IMG/VR virus record: IMGVR_UViG_3300032174_000002
Location: 21,091 to 85,090 of that record
Length of the DNA stretch: 64,000 nt
Origin: a virus
Strand: one strand, 5' to 3'
Part shown: one piece after another, positions 1,146-34,699 of the stretch
Layout: each line of letters opens with the position of its first letter
Numbering within the stretch: the stretch's first letter is position 1
Notes under the pieces: generated by a model
Told to the model about the DNA's origin: nothing
The model's input: the letters and a program-made list of their open reading frames with translations, nothing else
Databases searched by the model: none
Made by a program: the position numbers and the translations under genes

Positions 1146-2630
1146 CTACCCTCCCTGCGCCGCTCTCGGCGCTGCTCGGCCGAAGCTGTAGTGCCTCGAC
1201 GCCTTGGGGCTCAGCCCGGCAAGCTCGAACATCAGCCACGTAGCAGCATCTAAACGATTGGGGCTCGCCTCGCCGCGCTTGCCGGTGTACGACAGCATCT
1301 CATCTTCCAGCTTTCGGAGATGGTCGTAGGTGTAGAGCCGCTTCTTCGGGTCCCACTTCGCGACGTGGTGGACGCGCCCCTGCTCGTAGAGGGCAGACAC
1401 CGGCTCGGCCCGCGCCATCTTGTTGACCGCGGCGTGGACCTTGCGGACGGGGAGGTTGATGTTCGCGCCGCGGAGCGTCGACTCCACCAGGTCGCCGCCG
1501 TTGTTCACCTCGGCCACCAGGCGGTCGCCAGCGATCTCCGCCATCAGCGCCGCGGCCGAGCTCGCCCAGGCCTCGGCCGGCATCACGCCGGACCAGTCGT
1601 CGGTGATGTAGAAGTGGGGCGGCGCCGGCTTGGCGGGAGGGGCCACGGCCCGCGCCAGACCTCGCTTGCCGGCCACGATGCCGCACTCGTCCGACGCCGA
1701 CGTCGCCGTCACCGACGGGTCCAGCCCAACCACCACCCGGTCGATCTCCTCCTCCCACCACTCGCCGTCCTCGCCCGCCGGCGCCTTCACCCGGTGAGCC
1801 GGCACTCGCTCGACTCGGTGGTCGTTGATCATGCCCCAGGTCCAGAGAGCGCCCGGCACGTCCTCGAGGATCTCGGCGGCCAACTCCTGGCGCCCCAGGC
1901 GCGTGCCTTCCATCGGTGCCACGACCTCCTCGATAAACTCGGCCGCCAGGTTGGCCTCGTTCTCCCTGGTATGGCCGCGGGTCACGATCGTGCTGGCCTT
2001 GGCCATCAACTCGCGAAGCAGCTTGATCGGCTTCGGGGTGGTGGTGATGAGGATCTGCGGCTGGCCCTTGCGGCACATCAGGAGCAGGTTCGACCAGACC
2101 TCTTCGAGGCGCTTGTAGGCGGCGAGCTCGTCCGCCCAGAAGCCGTCGAGGTTGGGGCCGCGGAAGCGGTCCGGTTCGTCGGCGGAGAACAGGTGGGCCT
2201 TCGCCCCGTTGTCCCAGGTGATCGTTCGCTTTGTGGGCTCGTAGCGGGGTCGGAAGGCCGGGTCCGAGCAGGCAAGGATGCCGGTCGGTCCCTCGACCAC
2301 GACGCCGCGGAGGTCACCCGCCGTCGGAGCCGACACCCCGAAGCGCTTCCACTCTCCCGCCTCCACCTTGTCGAGGACGGCGTTTGACCCGACTTTCGTC
2401 TTTCCCCAGCCGCGCCCGGCCAGCCACATGAGGATGAAGAACCCGCACGCCGGCAGGAACTGCCCGTTGCTCCGCTCGTCCCGGTCGAGCGTCGGGTTCC
2501 GCGGTCGTCCGGCCCCCTCCTGGCCCACCGCATGCCAGCGCTTCCGCCTCTCGGTGTCGAGAGGAGCGTTCCTGAGCATGAAGAGGCGCCAGAACTCCTG
2601 GCGGAGGGGGATGGGGGAGAGGGCGGGCAT
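1146..2630 (-). CDS. terL: Terminase large subunit
   Basis: Walker A AGRGWGKT, Walker B FWADE, ITTTPK coupling motif, nuclease motifs VGLDPS, EVNNGG, K-x-x-RAEPV, SPNRLDA; start approximate. Confidence 0.93.
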   Translation of the reverse strand: MPALSPIPLRQEFWRLFMLRNAPLDTERRKRWHAVGQEGAGRPRNPTLDRDERSNGQFLPACGFFILMWLAGRGWGKTKVGSNAVLDKVEAGEWKRFGVSAPTAGDLRGVVVEGPTGILACSDPAFRPRYEPTKRTITWDNGAKAHLFSADEPDRFRGPNLDGFWADELAAYKRLEEVWSNLLLMCRKGQPQILITTTPKPIKLLRELMAKASTIVTRGHTRENEANLAAEFIEEVVAPMEGTRLGRQELAAEILEDVPGALWTWGMINDHRVERVPAHRVKAPAGEDGEWWEEEIDRVVVGLDPSVTATSASDECGIVAGKRGLARAVAPPAKPAPPHFYITDDWSGVMPAEAWASSAAALMAEIAGDRLVAEVNNGGDLVESTLRGANINLPVRKVHAAVNKMARAEPVSALYEQGRVHHVAKWDPKKRLYTYDHLRKLEDEMLSYTGKRGEASPNRLDAATWLMFELAGLSPKASRHYSFGRAAPRAAQGG

Positions 2631-2778
2631 GGAACCAGCTAGCCGTGATCGATGGCGACCACGAAGCGGCGAGGGTCGAGCCCGCGGCACCGATTCGAGA
2701 GGGTGGCGAACTCGGGCGGCCAAGACCGCACCTCGTCCCTGTCCACGAACCAGTCGGTCACCTCGCGCGTGGTCGCCA

Positions 2779-7910: not shown

Positions 7911-8353
7911 GCGCTCTCTCCCGCTCGACCGCGACGTCGAGCCAGCCGACGTCCGGGTCCTGCCGTAGCCGCTTCTCCCAAGCTCGGTGCAGGCCGGGGT
8001 CCGCCGCGCAGGCTTGGAGGTAGGCCTGCTGCAAGACGGCGCCGAGTTGGCGCCAGGCGGCGATCTCCTCGCGTGTCGCCTCGACGAGACGACGGGTCGC
8101 CGCGGCGAGCGGGGATTCGAGGAGGGCGGTCACGGCGTCCGCTCCCATCGCTCGGTCGCCGCCTTGCGCGACTGCCGCGCCTTCGGCTGCCGGTGGGCCG
8201 GATACCGTGCTGCCGGGAGGCTGGCGTCCTGGGCGCCGGCGAGGAGGCGCTCGACCTCACGGAGGGCGGCGACGATCTTTGCTGAGCGGCCCGGCGCCGT
8301 CACGTGGAGGGCGTCCACCTCGTCAACCAGCTCCCGCAGTTTCGTGGTGTCCA

Positions 8354-28484: not shown

Positions 28485-28513
28485 AGAATAGAGCGGACCG
28501 TGCGCTCTGTCAA
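28485..28513 (-). promoter_or_regulatory. Leftward sigma70 promoter
   Basis: TTGACA-17-TATTCT. Confidence 0.75.
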
Positions 28514-28539
28514 GCGATGCGACTCTCCGTTGCCTTGAC

Positions 28540-28568
28540 TTGACAACGCGGACGAACTTCCCTACCAT
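28540..28568 (+). promoter_or_regulatory. Rightward sigma70 promoter, leaderless
   Basis: TTGACA-17-TACCAT, ATG 7 nt downstream. Confidence 0.75.
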
Positions 28569-28575
28569 CCCGGGC

Positions 28576-28815
28576 ATGGCAAACACCTCCTCACCGCGGA
28601 CCGACATCGCCAGGGCGCTCCGGGTCGCACGGGCGCGCCTTGGCATCGAGCAGGCCGAGATGGCGGAGCGCACCGGATGCAGTGCGTCCATGGTGTCGCT
28701 GCTCGAACGGGGTATGCGAGCCCCCAGCGCCGAGCTGCTGGCCGCCTACGCAGCCACCGCCGGCGTCCCTCTGTCGGAGATGCTCCGGTGGGGAGAGGAG
28801 GCGAGCGCGCCATGA
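28576..28815 (+). CDS. XRE/Cro-like HTH regulator
   Basis: LGIEQAEMAERTGCSASMVSLLERG. Confidence 0.85.
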   Translation: MANTSSPRTDIARALRVARARLGIEQAEMAERTGCSASMVSLLERGMRAPSAELLAAYAATAGVPLSEMLRWGEEASAP

Positions 28816-29090
28816 GCCGCACGCCGATCAACGATCTCGCCGAGCTGCTCCACAAGGAGGTGCTGCCGCGGATCTACGGCAAGCCCGTCCAGTTCGTGAT
28901 GCTGGTCTTCACCGACGAGCCGGAGGGAGCGGGAGGCGTCCGCGCCGACTGGATCTCGACCGTCAAGCGCGAGGACGCCAACACGGCCGTCGCCGAGTGG
29001 CTCCAGCGGATGGACCCGGAGATGGCCAAGCGCGTCTTCGACCGCCTGTTGCAGCAGAACCTTACCGGACCCGAGAGGGTCCAGGGATAG
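28812..29090 (+). CDS. Hypothetical protein
   Basis: ATGA overlap. Confidence 0.6.
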   Translation: MSRTPINDLAELLHKEVLPRIYGKPVQFVMLVFTDEPEGAGGVRADWISTVKREDANTAVAEWLQRMDPEMAKRVFDRLLQQNLTGPERVQG

Positions 29091-29109
29091 CCGAAAGGAG
29101 CCAGCCACG

Positions 29110-29763
29110 ATGACCACCAGGAAGAGAGCGAGGAAGCCGCCGGCAGCGAAGCCAGAGCCCGCGAAGGAAGCGGCTGAGGGACCGACAATCGAGTCGCTGC
29201 GCGCCGACGCGACCAGGCTGTCGGGCCAACTCCTGGCGGCGCAGGCCCGCGTCAAGGCGATGAGAGAGGCGCTCATCTGGTGCAGCGGCGCCAGCGACTT
29301 CGCGCCGCCGGACTACTCGGGCGCGCCGGAAGGAGGTCCGCCGAAGACTCCGGCCGGGAAGGCATATGAGGGATGGGAGAAGATCTGCCGCCCACTCCTC
29401 GCGAAGGAAGCCGCCGCAGCACCGGAGCCGGCAGCCGCAGCAGCGCCCCCAGAGCCGGAGAAGGCGGAAGCCGCCGCGCAGCCGGCCGAGGACGAGGCGA
29501 AGCGCCAGGCCGCGCGCGACGAGTTCAACCGCGCCTTCACCTTGAACGCCGAGGTCCGCATCGACTCCATCGTCGGATCGGAGCCGGCCCGGAGCCTCGA
29601 AGGCGACCTCCGCTCCTACATCGCCTTCCTGGAGCGCAAGTACGGGATGACGGTCCATGCCATCGACTACCAGAAGCGGCCGCGCGGCGAGTACATGCGG
29701 GCTACCACTACGTTGCTGCCGGAGAAGAGGCGCAGCGGCAACTGGTTCGCCTTGGCCGGCTGA
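29110..29763 (+). CDS. Hypothetical protein
   Basis: AAGGAG RBS. Confidence 0.6.
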   Translation: MTTRKRARKPPAAKPEPAKEAAEGPTIESLRADATRLSGQLLAAQARVKAMREALIWCSGASDFAPPDYSGAPEGGPPKTPAGKAYEGWEKICRPLLAKEAAAAPEPAAAAAPPEPEKAEAAAQPAEDEAKRQAARDEFNRAFTLNAEVRIDSIVGSEPARSLEGDLRSYIAFLERKYGMTVHAIDYQKRPRGEYMRATTTLLPEKRRSGNWFALAG

Positions 29764-29766
29764 GCC

Positions 29767-30435
29767 ATGGCGGAGCCCCGCATCATCACCGCCTTCGACG
29801 AGATCGCCCAGCTGGCCATCCGGCTGGGCGTCGTGCCGCTCAACGCCCGGCCGGGCTGCTGGGAGTTCCAGGTGGACGAGCATTGGTGGATCGCGGTCAA
29901 CGGCCACCGCGAGTCGCTGAAGTGCTCGAAGGGTGTCGCGGTCGAGCCGTTCAACGCTTACGTGGAGTTCAACGGCTGGCCCGCGGGCAGCTTCAACCCG
30001 GCCGGCGGGATCATGGCGGCCGGAGAGGCGGCGAACGAGGATGCCTTCATCGCGGCGCTGCGGGCTGCGGTTCCGGCGCTACGACGCCCAACGCCGGCGG
30101 ATGGCCGAGGTTCCGACCTCCCTGGTGCCGGCCTCTGCTGGCGAGGTGCGGGAGTTGATCGGGCGGCTGTTCGGAGGCGCCGGGCGATGAGAGCGGCGAA
30201 GGATTGGGACTGGCGCAGCCGGCACGAGCGCATCCTGGCCCTCCTGGGACGCAACGCCAACGCCGGCGTGGATGGCGTCGCGACCGTGCGAGAGATCGCC
30301 CAGCAGCTCGACGTCGGCTATCAGCTCACCCTCCGCGACCTCTGGGCGCTCGCTTCCCAGGGCAAGATCACGATGAAGCGCCGCGAGCGGGACGGGCGGC
30401 TATTTCCTTCGATCCGACAGGAGAATGCTCTATGA
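29767..30435 (+). CDS. Hypothetical protein; C-terminal part winged-HTH-like (may be a separate gene from 30187)
   Basis: ATVREIAQQLDVGYQLTLRDLWAL. Confidence 0.5.
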   Translation: MAEPRIITAFDEIAQLAIRLGVVPLNARPGCWEFQVDEHWWIAVNGHRESLKCSKGVAVEPFNAYVEFNGWPAGSFNPAGGIMAAGEAANEDAFIAALRAAVPALRRPTPADGRGSDLPGAGLCWRGAGVDRAAVRRRRAMRAAKDWDWRSRHERILALLGRNANAGVDGVATVREIAQQLDVGYQLTLRDLWALASQGKITMKRRERDGRLFPSIRQENAL

Positions 30436-31099
30436 AGGACAGCGATTCCGGGACGCAGAAAGGCCTGCTGCGCAGCCGCCAGACCCTCGAAGCGGTTATG
30501 GCGTTCCTCCACGAGGTCAAGTCGTTCGACATCGCGCCGGTCAAGATCGCCTTCGACAAGGCGCGGCGGCACTGCAAGGCGCTCGGCCAGGATCTCTTCG
30601 AGGCGGACATGGCCTCGCAGCTGCGGGCCGGCGGCCCACCGGCCGGCCCCTGTTCGAGCAGGAAGCCGAGGAGCGCGCCGCGGCCGACCGGGCCGAGCTG
30701 GTACGGCAGGCGACCGGCGATGCGCCTCCCGATGCCGTGCCCGAGGCCGAGAAGAAGAAGCGCGGCCGACCCAAGAAGCGGGCGCCCGAGGGACCGCCAG
30801 CCGAGGATGCTGCGCCGCCCGAGGTCACCCCGGAGCCGCCGGCCGAGGAGCCCCAGGCCTCGGAGCGCGCCACGGTCACCTATGAGCTGCGCCGCGACAC
30901 CAACATGGGCGGGGCCACCTACGCCTGCCGCCTGGTGAGCCGGGGCGGCCCTCCCGTTCTGACCGGCCTGTCTCGGCCGATCGAGCCCCGCGAGCTGGCG
31001 GCCATGACGCTGGAGAATCTTCCCTCCCTGGCCTACGACGAGACGCCCGAGATGCTCGGATGGGCGGCGGGGCAACTGCGGGCGATCGAGCCCGGCTGA
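30432..31099 (+). pseudogene. Hypothetical gene with apparent -1 frameshift near 30650 (AT-hook-like KKRGRPKK)
   Basis: Coding-like frame switches at GGCCCCTG. Confidence 0.45.
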
Positions 31100-31157
31100 G
31101 CCGGTAAAATCCCGCGCCGGTTGTAAAAAGCCGGCGAGATTCCGATGAGGTGAAGCG

Positions 31158-32015
31158 ATGCAGCGATACACGCAGGAGTTGATTACCAGCGTCGGACACC
31201 CAGAGGATGGACACACCGCGCAGGCAACCGTCGAGCCGGTGATGGTGCCGCGGCCGGCCGGCGAGTGGGTGCGGTTCGCCGACGTACCCCTGGCGACGAT
31301 CACCGCACTCAACATCGCCGAGCGCGACTGCGAAGCGGCCGTCGGCAAGGCGACAAACGCCGAACGCGAGCGCGATGCGGCCCGCCAGTCCTTCGCCGAC
31401 ACCGAGAATGCGCGCCTCGCTTTACTCGCCGAGTTGCGCATCGTCCAGGTCGGCAGGGACACGGCGCAGCGTGAAGTGGTGCGTGAGCACGACGGCAGGG
31501 TCGCGGCTGCCCGCGAGCGCGACGCCGCACTGAAGCTCGCCGAAGAACGCTCCCTGGCGGCAGGGATAGCCGAGGAAGCGCTACGGAAGGATGCAGCCGT
31601 CATCCAAGCCCTGAACGCGCAGTGCGAAGCGGACAGGGCCAGGGCAGGCGCCGCGGAGAAGGCGTTGGAGACAGCGCGCGCGGACCGGGACGTCCTCACC
31701 CGCATGCTGGCCGAGACTCGCGCGGACGCCATCCTGCTCGCGGCGTTCCCGCGCCTCCGGGAAGTCATCGCCGGGCCTAGTGCCGCGCCGGTAGAACGGC
31801 CAGGCGGCGGCTGGAGCTACGACATGGAAGCCGCGCCGCGAGACGGCAGTTCCAGGGACACGATCGAGTTGGCGACGGAGGAGGGCGTCCTGGTCGGCTT
31901 CTGGCACCTCAGTCGCGAGTGGCTGGCGCCGCGCAGTCTTGCGCCCTTGCCGACTCCGTACGCCTGGCGCCGCGTGCGAATTCCACCGCGGCCGGCCGCC
32001 ACCGAGGGGAGCTGA
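31158..32015 (+). CDS. Coiled-coil protein with C-terminal APRDG (DUF551-like) domain
   Basis: ERD heptads; WSYDMEAAPRDG...P.AWR. Confidence 0.6.
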   Translation: MQRYTQELITSVGHPEDGHTAQATVEPVMVPRPAGEWVRFADVPLATITALNIAERDCEAAVGKATNAERERDAARQSFADTENARLALLAELRIVQVGRDTAQREVVREHDGRVAAARERDAALKLAEERSLAAGIAEEALRKDAAVIQALNAQCEADRARAGAAEKALETARADRDVLTRMLAETRADAILLAAFPRLREVIAGPSAAPVERPGGGWSYDMEAAPRDGSSRDTIELATEEGVLVGFWHLSREWLAPRSLAPLPTPYAWRRVRIPPRPAATEGS

Positions 32016-32018
32016 GGC

Positions 32019-32252
32019 ATGGAGATCACGCTCCGCAGCACCAGCAAGATCGTCACCGTCAACGGTAACGTGCAGGCGCGGGTTTGGGAGGGAGCGACCG
32101 CTTCGGGAACGCCGATCACGGCCCTGGTGACCCGGATCGTCGTAGCGGAAGACGCCGGCGCCGAGCGGCATGCCGAGTTCGAGCGCGAGCTGCAAGAGAC
32201 CGCCGCGCCCACGGGCGTGAACGAGGCATTCCCTCTCCGCCTGATCCTCTGA
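32019..32252 (+). CDS. Hypothetical phage protein
   Basis: ARVWEG.T.SG motif. Confidence 0.6.
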   Translation: MEITLRSTSKIVTVNGNVQARVWEGATASGTPITALVTRIVVAEDAGAERHAEFERELQETAAPTGVNEAFPLRLIL

Positions 32253-32454
32253 TGCGCCGCTCCCCGAAATCCCGCTTGCGCCGCCGGCGCCAGGACCCCG
32301 GCCCCAAGCCGGTCGTCTTGGAAGACGGCGACCCGCGCATCGTACCTGACTGGACCGGGCAATGTACCGTCTGCGGCAACTCGCCCATCGTGCCGCTGAC
32401 CGGCCTGTGCGGGCCCTGCACTTGGGGCGAGGCCGAGACGGCTGGAGGAAACTG

Positions 32455-32784
32455 GTGACCGAGCGCGTCATGACCCCTGGCCACCTCCTCGCCGGCCCCG
32501 CGGAGGACCACTACGTCCTCCGGGTCGTGGGCGACATGGCGGCAGAGGACGGCATCCAAGACGGAGACCTCCTGGTGCTGCTGCGGGCCGAGGCGCGCCC
32601 GGGCGACGTCGCCGCGGTGCTGGTCGGCGGGGACTGCTACCTGCGCCGCTACTTCCCGGAGGGCGCCACGGTCAGGCTGGATGCGCTCGGCCGCGGTAGG
32701 CCCGCGATCTCTGTCCCGGCCGCGGATATCAAGGTCCAGGGCGTCGTGGCCGGGCTGATGCGGAAGTACCGGAGGGGAGCGTGA
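32455..32784 (+). CDS. Stand-alone LexA/S24 peptidase-like domain, catalytically inactive
   Basis: YVLRVVGD-MA, GIQDGDLLV, GDVAAVLV, LRR, VQGVVAGLMRKY align to the LexA C-terminal domain. Confidence 0.8.
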   Translation: MTERVMTPGHLLAGPAEDHYVLRVVGDMAAEDGIQDGDLLVLLRAEARPGDVAAVLVGGDCYLRRYFPEGATVRLDALGRGRPAISVPAADIKVQGVVAGLMRKYRRGA

Positions 32785-32971
32785 GGGCCCTCTCCCGCCT
32801 CGCCAGGCATCTCGGCAAACGGACGCGCTGGTGCCTGTTCGTGGCAGCGAGCGCGGCCACCGCCAACCGCCTCGGGACCTGGCCTGCGCCAGCGGACTGC
32901 GCCAGCCGCGCCGATGAGCTCGAGGCCGAGTATCAGGAGCGCTTCGGCAGGAAGCGCAAGAAGGGGGCTGC

Positions 32972-34699
32972 TTGACCGTGAAGTTGCATCTCGCCGCCGA
33001 CCTGGCCCTACCGCTCGACGCCTGCACGCAGACCTTCCTGGTGGTCGGCAAGCGCGGGAGCGGCAAGACCAACACCTGCGGTCGGCTCGCCGAGCAGCTG
33101 CATCACGCGAAGCTGCCCTTCGTCGTAGTCGACCCGGTGGACTCGTGGTGGGGCCTCAAGGCGGCGCAGGACGGCCGCGGGCCCGGTCTCGACGTCTACG
33201 TCTTCGGCGGCAGCCATGCCGACCTGCCGCTCGAGGCGACCGGCGGCAGCTTGGTCGCCGACGTCGTGATCGAGAACCGCATCTCGGCCATCCTCTCGAT
33301 CAAGCACTTCAGCGGCCGGGAGCGCTCCCGTTTCGTCTCCGACTTCGCCGACCGGTTGTTCCGCAAGAACGCCGGCGAGCCGGTGCATCTCTTCCTCGAG
33401 GAGGCCCACGAGGTGGCGCCGCAGCAGATCCCGAAGCGCGAGGGCGCCGAGGAGATGCTGGGCCGGGTGACGCGGATCTGGAAGCTCGGCCGCTCTTCGG
33501 GGATCGGCGGCTCCGCGATCACGCAACGGCCGGCCAGCTTGTCGAAGAACATCACGACCCAGGCCGAGATTCTGATCGTGCATCGCCTGATCGGCCCGCA
33601 GGACGTGGCCGCCATCAAGGAGTGGATCAAGTACCACGGCGAGAGCGAGGAGATCCTGCCGACCCTCTCTGGCCTCAAGACCGGCGAGGCGTGGGTGTGG
33701 GCCCCCGACTTCCCGGAGAGCGCGCCGATCGGGCTGCGCCGGGTGCAGATCCTGAAACGCGAGACGTTCGACTCCTCGGCAACTCCTACCGGCCACCGCG
33801 TCGAGCCGCGGGAGTTGGCGCCGGTCGACATCGCCGGCATCAGCTCGAAGATGGCGGCCACGATCGAGCGAGCGAAGGCCGAGGACCCGAAGGAGTTGCG
33901 GCGGCGGATCGCGGAGCTCGAGCGCGCGCTGGTGGTGGCCGAGAAGAAGGCGGCGGTCGAGCCGATCGTCACCCAGCGCGTCGAGGTGCCGGTCCTGGCG
34001 CTGGACATCGCTGTGCGCCTGACCCGCGACGCCGGCGCCATCCAGGCGGCGGCCGAGGGGATGGCGAGGACGGCGGCCGAGATCGCTGCGGGAGTTCAGC
34101 GAGCGCAGGCCGCAGGCGAGGCGGCCACGCGCCGGCCCATCGCGGCACCAGCGCCCGTCCGTGCCGCGGTCCCGCGGCAGGCACCCCATGCGCGCGCCAC
34201 CCAGCCGCGGCAGGGAGGCCCCGCACCTGCCGAGAACGGTCGCCTCCCCGTCGGCGAGCGCCGCATCCTGACCGCCATCGCTCAGTACCCGGAGGGGGCG
34301 AGCCGCGAACAGCTGACCATCCTCACCGGCTACAAGCGGTCCTCGCGAGACACCTACCTTCAGCGCCTCGGGGCTCGCGGCCTGGTCGACGCCGCCGGTG
34401 GCGGCATGCTGATGGCCACCGGCGCAGGCATGGCCGCCCTTGGCGATGACTTCGAGCCCCTCCCGACCGGAGCGGCCCTGCAGTCCTACTGGCTCGACCG
34501 GCTCCCGGAGGGCGAGCGCCGCATCCTCGCCATCCTGATCGGCGCCTATCCGCGGGCGGTGCAGCGGCCCGACCTCGACGAGGCGACTGGCTACAAGCGC
34601 TCGAGCCGTGACACCTACTTGCAGCGGCTGGGCTCGCGCCGGCTGATCACGGCCGCCGGGCCCGGCGAGGTGCGGGCGAGCGAGGGGCTGTTCGGATGA
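32972..34699 (+). CDS. HerA/FtsK-superfamily (DUF87-like) ATPase with tandem C-terminal winged helices
   Basis: GKRGSGKT, VDP, FLEEAH, GR..GIG, TQRPA; duplicated GERRIL...TGYKRSSRDTYLQRL. Confidence 0.8.
   Translation: MTVKLHLAADLALPLDACTQTFLVVGKRGSGKTNTCGRLAEQLHHAKLPFVVVDPVDSWWGLKAAQDGRGPGLDVYVFGGSHADLPLEATGGSLVADVVIENRISAILSIKHFSGRERSRFVSDFADRLFRKNAGEPVHLFLEEAHEVAPQQIPKREGAEEMLGRVTRIWKLGRSSGIGGSAITQRPASLSKNITTQAEILIVHRLIGPQDVAAIKEWIKYHGESEEILPTLSGLKTGEAWVWAPDFPESAPIGLRRVQILKRETFDSSATPTGHRVEPRELAPVDIAGISSKMAATIERAKAEDPKELRRRIAELERALVVAEKKAAVEPIVTQRVEVPVLALDIAVRLTRDAGAIQAAAEGMARTAAEIAAGVQRAQAAGEAATRRPIAAPAPVRAAVPRQAPHARATQPRQGGPAPAENGRLPVGERRILTAIAQYPEGASREQLTILTGYKRSSRDTYLQRLGARGLVDAAGGGMLMATGAGMAALGDDFEPLPTGAALQSYWLDRLPEGERRILAILIGAYPRAVQRPDLDEATGYKRSSRDTYLQRLGSRRLITAAGPGEVRASEGLFG

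Follow-up and report, generated by a model that had tools for sequence, protein, structure and literature searches.

A phage-encoded LexA C-terminal domain without a catalytic dyad, apparently derived from the LexA of a probable acidobacterial host clade

A gene of a soil phage was found whose 109-aa product, P0001, amounts, judging from its sequence, to a slightly shortened form of the C-terminal autocleavage fragment of LexA. The gene lies in the 64,000-nucleotide stretch of DNA analysed here (the window), which comprises bases 21091-85090 of the 85,090-bp virus record IMGVR_UViG_3300032174_000002, a record with direct terminal repeats and a G+C content of 70%. P0001 is recognisable as a member of the S24 fold family but not as a peptidase, both residues of the catalytic dyad being replaced. 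Its relationships indicate that it is a copy of the C-terminal half of LexA from Thermoanaerobaculia or Holophagales.

A LexA C-terminal domain that has lost its catalytic residues

P0001 matches the Pfam family PF00717, Peptidase_S24 (E 1.3e-9; 38.2 bits, cut-off 23.3), and its best solved relative by sequence is the T. maritima LexA 3k2z (E 2.4e-11, HMMER). The same LexA is the best fold match in the PDB: the AF2 model of P0001 (pLDDT 94.7, pTM 0.84) aligns with it over 102 columns with a TM of 0.84 and an rmsd of 1.5 A. The next fold matches are M. tuberculosis LexA C-domains, UmuD', and lambda CI C-domains. The initial annotation had called the protein a mimic of the LexA C-terminal domain. 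This was supported and could be sharpened, in that P0001 is closest to the LexA of the probable host clade and that its best NCBIfam model is lexA. The match to this model, TIGR00498, covers profile positions 110-202 of 203 and scores 49.4 bits, below the cut-off of 110.95.

The annotation had also read from the letters that the nucleophilic Ser, the catalytic Lys, the helix-turn-helix (HTH) domain, and a correctly placed Ala-Gly site are all missing while the dimerisation tail is retained. Each of these points was confirmed. In HMMER alignments to LexA chains, the Ser column of the G-x-S-M motif is occupied by Met28 (GDMA), and the column of Lys162 of P. aeruginosa LexA is occupied by Arg64 (YLRRY). 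The sole Ser of P0001 is at position 86, and Lys occurs at 93 and 104 only. Pfam returns PF00717 alone for both the 109-aa protein and a 140-aa extended frame; in the whole phage, PF01726 gave a single sub-threshold match of 11.7 bits at another gene. The only Ala-Gly pair of P0001, at residues 13-14, falls about 20 residues past the host cleavage bond in the alignment and thus is not a cleavage site. Of the 12 positions of the tail VQGVVAGLMRKY, which corresponds to strand beta11, 10 have the residue of the host LexA consensus.

The probable host clade

Relatives were sought by a pattern scan over one genome per species. Of its 105 matches, 83 proved to encode relatives; the 80 loci retained are nearly all from Thermoanaerobaculia, Holophagales, or unclassified Acidobacteriota MAGs. 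When these were read upstream, a full-length LexA with a start codon was found in 76 of the 80 loci. The N-terminal motif was missed in the other four; L077 and L081 are out of frame there, and L082 has an HTH-bearing N-terminus. The 76 host LexA proteins share the HTH domain, the Ala-Gly bond, G-E/D-S-M, and L-K-R, and one host-clade LexA scored 181.1 bits on TIGR00498 (cut-off 110.95). With the C-terminal domain of 64 host-clade LexA proteins, namely those of 195-225 aa among the 76 extracted, P0001 has 40-56% identity (median 51%), and its N-terminus lies about 10 residues past the host Ala-Gly bond. Since P0001 is closest to the LexA of Thermoanaerobaculia/Holophagales, this clade of Acidobacteriota is indicated as the probable host of the phage.

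A complete gene in a rightward operon

The initial annotation had placed the LexA mimic at 32455-32784, and these coordinates proved right for the 109-aa product (Table 1). The GTG start overlaps the TGA of the preceding 68-aa ORF (GTGA), and the stop codon overlaps the GTG at 32781 of the following ORF. Because of the former overlap, the S24 gene is probably translationally coupled to the 68-aa ORF. GC3 is 0.92 within the gene. Upstream of 32455, it is 0.71 in the in-frame extension versus 0.84 in the overlapping Zn-ribbon frame, and this drop supports the start at 32455 and the 109-aa reading. A contig of 85,104 bp from a second assembly encodes a protein (P0152) identical to P0001.

Table 1. 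Features of the S24 gene and its surroundings (window coordinates).
Feature	Position	Strand	Remark
Sigma-70-like promoter TTGACA-17-TACCAT	28540..28568	+	consensus match only
77-aa ORF, widespread small phage protein family	32019..32252	+	same operon as S24 gene
68-aa ORF, Cys-rich (CxxC...CxxC) Zn-ribbon	32252..32458	+	GC3 0.85
Shine-Dalgarno-like GGAGGA	32444..32449	+	5 nt ahead of GTG 32455
S24 gene (P0001, 109 aa)	32455..32784	+	GTG start 32455, TGA stop 32782-32784
64-aa ORF	32781..32975	+	GTG overlapping S24 stop; Pfam match sub-threshold only

From 28677 to 34699, the ORFs of the plus strand are closely packed. The ATG at 28577, which is 8 nt past the TACCAT of the promoter in Table 1, starts an XRE-type gene (its HTH was recognised by eye) that is apparently leaderless. 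This promoter and the XRE-type gene probably head the rightward operon, with the S24 gene 3.9 kb downstream.

Several features of the surroundings may be recorded here. The region 28485-28579 has back-to-back sigma-70-like promoters, TTGACA-17-TATTCT leftward and TTGACA-17-TACCAT rightward. It resembles a switch region, yet searches of the phage found neither a tyrosine integrase nor a serine recombinase, and a temperate lifestyle has no support from these empty searches. Beyond the 64-aa ORF, a 575-aa protein (32972-34699) has a HerA/FtsK-like ATPase N-terminus (Pfam HerA_C, 24 bits) and a C-terminus with two repeats of about 60 aa resembling winged-helix domains. Its PHROG label, 'terminase large subunit', covers the ATPase part only, and a separate terminase large subunit is encoded at window positions 1146-2723.

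Is the S24 gene part of a conserved cassette? The 77-aa protein is 44% identical to the product of L002:8536-8766 (E 3e-18), and its family occurs in 22 other viral contigs (L084-L105) with a G+C content of 42 to 69%. An S24 homologue was found in none of these 22 loci. The 68-aa Cys-rich ORF has no PHROGs family match, and the small Cys-rich neighbours of the S24 homologues are similar neither to it nor to each other. Thus, a three-gene cassette of the 77-aa protein, the Zn-ribbon, and the S24 protein was rejected, because the 22 other loci lack the S24 gene and the Cys-rich neighbours are dissimilar. The 77-aa protein is without specific link to the S24 gene.

Related proteins without the N-terminal half

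I performed an exhaustive HMMER search of 1.84 billion representatives, which gave 1286 matches at E <=1e-3, the nearest being 119 aa in length with 57% identity. Among the best 150 of the 1286 matches, Ser and Lys are both kept in 115, at least one is absent in 30, and the Ser column is gapped in 5. In total, 17 forms without the N-terminal domain (94-131 aa) were gathered, four of which come from IMG/VR viral contigs (the record studied here, L002, L003, and L127). Five of the 17 (P0002, P0012, P0018, L003, and L127) start within about 3 residues of the host cleavage bond, and thus copy the natural C-terminal autocleavage fragment of LexA. No LexA N-terminal domain was found upstream of the short-form gene at the L002, L003, and L118 loci.

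The dyad is complete in eight of the 17 short forms, while three have lost Ser alone and six have lost both residues. The nine Ser-less forms have Met, Ala, Asn, Gly, or Thr in its place. The initial annotation had asked whether homologues consistently lack Ser and Lys, and this held only in part: the nearest homologue, P0002, keeps both, but Ser is absent in more than half of the short forms. Since Ser was lost in nine forms with five different replacements, P0001 is not a lone decayed gene. To go by these residues, catalysis is dispensable among the short forms.

In a quick tree of 88 rows and another of 40 rows, both star-like, the short forms group with the host-clade LexA at weak support (SH-aLRT 81), and the interior of the group is star-like as well. 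The end branches of the short forms are 0.25-2.4 in length versus 0.004-0.24 for host LexA. No relative of P0001 close enough for dN/dS was found. A word-index search confirmed P0001 alone among 60 candidates, and a phage GenBank collection yielded one record with 37% identity. A metagenome scan with P0001 alone confirmed 0 of 598 stretches, and a scan with three Met-forms gave two short contigs only, both carrying P0008.

The genes next to the short forms were named by eye from their translations. A YqaJ-like exonuclease gene and a RecT-like gene precede the S24 gene of L002, and the S24 gene of L118 also has a YqaJ-like exonuclease gene nearby. That of L003 is flanked by a nuclease-like gene on one side and an ATPase gene on the other. 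The RecT-like protein of L002 (6898-7986) and the ATPase of L003 (8550-9914) are mutually unrelated; as seen by eye, their C-terminal tails of about 45 residues are both acidic and similar, and may be a common docking tail.

Two further observations concern truncated sequences. In the viral contig L129, a LexA-C-domain-like sequence at 8001-8126, between large genes, is limited to about its first 40 residues; it is 50% identical to residues 2-42 in the alignment of the short forms and is possibly a remnant. Other short S24-only proteins (P0036/P0048, P0041, P0062, P0130, P0124, and P0132) group with different long LexA or repressor lineages, and several of them keep Ser and have Arg for Lys. 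Further lineages may also have given rise to forms that lack the N-terminal domain, and some of these proteins may be gene-call fragments.

The dimer surface and the rewritten positions

According to the excerpt of PMC11787620, the P. aeruginosa LexA dimer is formed by antiparallel pairing of beta11 (V201, I202, R203, R204), and R105, I106, F110, F111, and G130 are further interface residues. Mapped via host LexA, the nine interface positions read M,T,L,L,G,L,M,R,K in P0001 and T,V,L,L,G,L,M,R,K in the host consensus. P0001 equals the consensus at seven of the nine, versus 55 of 105 positions overall, and the differences are Met6 for Thr and Thr7 for Val. Over the 17 short forms, the mean identity to host is 0.72 at the interface versus 0.52 at all positions (permutation p 0.014), and it is 0.54 at eight active-site positions. 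When host-invariant positions only are compared, the values are 0.75 for the interface versus 0.64 (p about 0.10). Interface conservation thus appears just modestly above background, and the interface residues also lie in a core strand. P0001 keeps the beta11 strand used for LexA dimerisation; the pairing itself is a prediction.

P0001 keeps 41 of 65 host-invariant positions, that is, positions conserved in at least 95% of hosts. On the other hand, 15 positions that are invariant across the 64 hosts are altered in P0001. They cluster in the G-x-S-M turn, in the A-T-L-K strand together with strand 52-55, and in loop 76-84.

A candidate LexA operator and the gene content of the phage

The host lexA promoters (L004-L080) lie about 40 nt before the start codon, have the form TTGCAT-17-TATACT-6/7-ATG, and are apparently leaderless. 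Their spacer contains a direct repeat, TTACGC-N4-TTACCGC, in which N4 is variable and the repeats are much less so. This element is a candidate for the LexA operator of Thermoanaerobaculia. In complete genomes, it is found without mismatch ahead of a gyrB/parE-like gene and an XRE gene, and with one mismatch ahead of an Lhr-like helicase gene (names by eye). Counts at one mismatch in the hosts are not above those of a reversed control pattern, and the recA promoters of four host genomes have at most a half-site-like element, in three of the four.

The window has six matches to the candidate operator at up to 3 mismatches, versus 8.8 expected. In the whole 85-kb phage, no site was found at one mismatch or fewer, and two were found at 2 mismatches. 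Thus, insofar as the candidate operator is the true one, there is no visible sign that the phage uses LexA to control its own genes. Neither a phage RecA nor a second S24 protein was found in the phage.

Discussion

What may a phage gain from half a LexA? The reading that I favour, tentatively and at a little short of an even chance, is that P0001 pairs with the host LexA to form one-headed dimers which bind DNA poorly, so that the SOS response is de-repressed or kept on. P0001 would be made early, from a host-type promoter, and would pair with LexA monomers, mainly newly made ones, via the conserved dimer surface. The mixed dimer would have a single DNA-binding domain and hence bind SOS operators poorly. 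LexA-repressed host genes would then be de-repressed, or kept on once infection has triggered SOS. P0001 itself would not be cut at the RecA*-stimulated cleavage site as LexA is, because it has neither the site nor the dyad. A phage that lacks RecA might in this way gain additional recombination and repair functions of the host.

There is a precedent for such pairing. In E. coli, a heterodimer of LexA and the LexA C-terminal domain (CTD) is inactive or binds DNA more weakly, LexA dimers are tight and dissociate slowly, monomers are supplied by new LexA, and the cleaved fragments are cleared by ClpXP and Lon, as the excerpt of PMC3159453 has it. Since dimer exchange is slow, a pure heterodimer poison would act on new LexA only; thus P0001, given the fragment heterodimers of E. 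coli and the origin of the monomers, should chiefly trap new LexA. The fact that eight of the 17 short forms keep the dyad counts against the heterodimer reading, and a function common to the family could differ from it. Also against it are the modest conservation of the interface, the two interface residues that differ from the host, the lack of a candidate operator site at up to one mismatch in the phage, and a host assignment that comes from similarity. The initial annotation had supposed this mechanism to be undescribed. That is not so for the mixed dimer as such, which is known from E. coli (PMC3159453, excerpt), but a phage-encoded C-terminal-only LexA was indeed not found in the literature, as covered by titles and abstract openings.

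Taken over the whole family, the short forms permit a broader and more doubtful speculation, namely that Thermoanaerobaculia phages repeatedly took the post-cleavage half of LexA as a 'pre-cleaved LexA' that switches or locks SOS on without RecA. Dead forms such as P0001 would then be heterodimer poisons that cannot be removed, while the forms with a dyad and without a cleavage site (L127, L002, L003, and P0002) might cleave the host LexA in trans. Kim and Little reportedly described such trans cleavage by a C-terminal fragment of LexA in 1993.

The anatomy of P0001 would fit a dominant-negative heterodimeriser and a decoy for activated RecA (RecA*) alike, and the latter is the main rival, if a rather unlikely one in my estimate. 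Here, the loop-less domain would sit in the groove of the activated RecA filament, or would hold the cleavage loop of LexA in trans. Cleavage of LexA and of prophage repressors would be blocked, and SOS, SOS-linked defences, or prophages would stay off. RecA* does bind LexA C-terminal domains, and a decoy would equally be expected to have lost Ser and Lys. The excerpt of PMC11787620 describes a pocket for RecA Phe202 that is lined by Y117, L119, and V159 and opens on loop exit; the equivalent pocket of P0001 (Y20 and L22, identical to host, and C61) would be permanently open without the loop. Phage or plasmid inhibitors of RecA-stimulated cleavage also exist, GIL01 gp7 (PMC4551915, excerpt) and 434 Hex (PMC3564112, excerpt) being examples. 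However, the RecA* contact involves the loop residues I85, A96, and Q98 as well, and it is the closed loop that is selected (PMC11787620, excerpt), whereas P0001 is without the entire cleavage loop. In addition, the host-invariant strand 52-55 and loop 76-84 are rewritten in P0001.

The heterodimer might also be formed with another S24 protein, so that P0001 would poison XRE-S24 repressors of the host or its prophages which control prophages, tailocins, or defence. Extra S24 proteins do occur in two of the four complete host-clade chromosomes (three matches in G001 and two in G004), and the XRE gene has the same candidate operator as lexA. I nevertheless regard this as improbable: the identity of P0001 is highest to LexA proper, LexA is the sole S24 protein in G002 and G003, and the phage has no S24 repressor of its own. 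Little credence is likewise given to P0001 being a decaying, functionless remnant of a captured lexA fragment. Both catalytic residues are gone, the end branch of P0001 is long (0.67-1.17 versus 0.004-0.24 for host LexA), and the 15 invariant positions have changed, as a remnant would have it. But the frame is intact with a high GC3, a Shine-Dalgarno-like sequence, and start and stop overlaps with both neighbours; the predicted fold is confident; 41 of the 65 host-invariant positions are kept; the identical sequence recurs in the second assembly; and Ser loss recurs in the short forms with five replacements. A role as a ready-made polymerase manager of the HumD/UmuD' type, working with a Y-family polymerase, is disfavoured as unlikely, its chance being very small. 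The best PHROG is phrog_811, 'UmuD-like protein' (E 9.3e-11), UmuD' chains are among the fold matches, and a phage-borne UmuD'-like protein is reportedly known in P1 HumD. Against this, the UmuD model NF007621 gives 25.5 bits versus a cut-off of 110, and the HumD model NF051876 has no match to P0001 at E 0.01. The Y-family polymerase domain PF00817 was not found in the phage, and the UmuC C-terminal domain PF13438 was found in none of the four complete host-clade chromosomes, with a positive E. coli control; in two of these chromosomes, LexA is the sole S24 protein.

The known tools by which phages act on the SOS switch differ in kind from P0001 and include a small LexA binder (GIL01 gp7), a DNA-binding half (gp6), LexA-controlled antirepressors, and UmuD'-like proteins. 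A phage copy of the dimerising half of the host LexA would be the missing counterpart to these tools. If the heterodimer reading is true, P0001 would act as an uncleavable dominant-negative subunit, independent of DNA damage. It would then offer a simple natural means of uncoupling SOS from RecA, would help to test why LexA fragments are so quickly destroyed in cells, and would serve as a host marker for uncultured phages of Acidobacteria. It would also illustrate that an S24 domain without its Ser/Lys dyad may have changed function and need not be decaying.

How does P0001 compare with the systems already described? It resembles the bacterial LexA C-terminal domain or fragment in fold, in the beta11 strand, and in its start just past the Ala-Gly bond. 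Unlike the natural fragment, P0001 is a separate phage gene product, about 10 residues shorter, and not a product of RecA*-stimulated cleavage; unlike the LexA C-domain, it has Met for Ser, Arg for Lys, rewritten active-site strands, and a rewritten loop 76-84. P1 HumD was reportedly described by McLenigan et al. in 1999 as a phage-encoded UmuD'-like protein. Like P0001, it is a phage-encoded S24 fold made without the cleavable N-terminal part. However, HumD is derived from UmuD and works with UmuC, whereas P0001 is LexA-derived and does not match the HumD model, and a UmuC partner was not found in the phage or in the four host-clade genomes. No published family of phage proteins consisting of a LexA C-domain without the N-terminus was found.

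Among the phage proteins that act on LexA or its relatives, GIL01 gp7 is, like P0001, a small phage protein, and it acts on host LexA. Yet it enhances DNA binding by LexA and inhibits RecA-mediated autocleavage, which is opposite to the direction proposed for P0001 (PMC4551915, excerpt). The 434 Hex protein also modulates RecA-stimulated autocleavage of an S24 repressor, but it acts on the 434 and P22 repressors and not on LexA (PMC3564112, excerpt). Both gp7 and Hex are set apart from P0001 here by their descriptions and not by sequence. A further parallel is GIL01 gp6, a phage-borne truncated homologue of the host LexA which is thought to have been acquired from a host (PMC6182141, excerpt). 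The two are mirror images: gp6 is the DNA-binding half of LexA (PMC6182141, excerpt), whereas P0001 is the C-terminal domain only and, unlike gp6, cannot bind DNA through a LexA-type HTH. What is particular to P0001 is that it apparently comes from the LexA of its own probable host, truncated at about the cleavage boundary.
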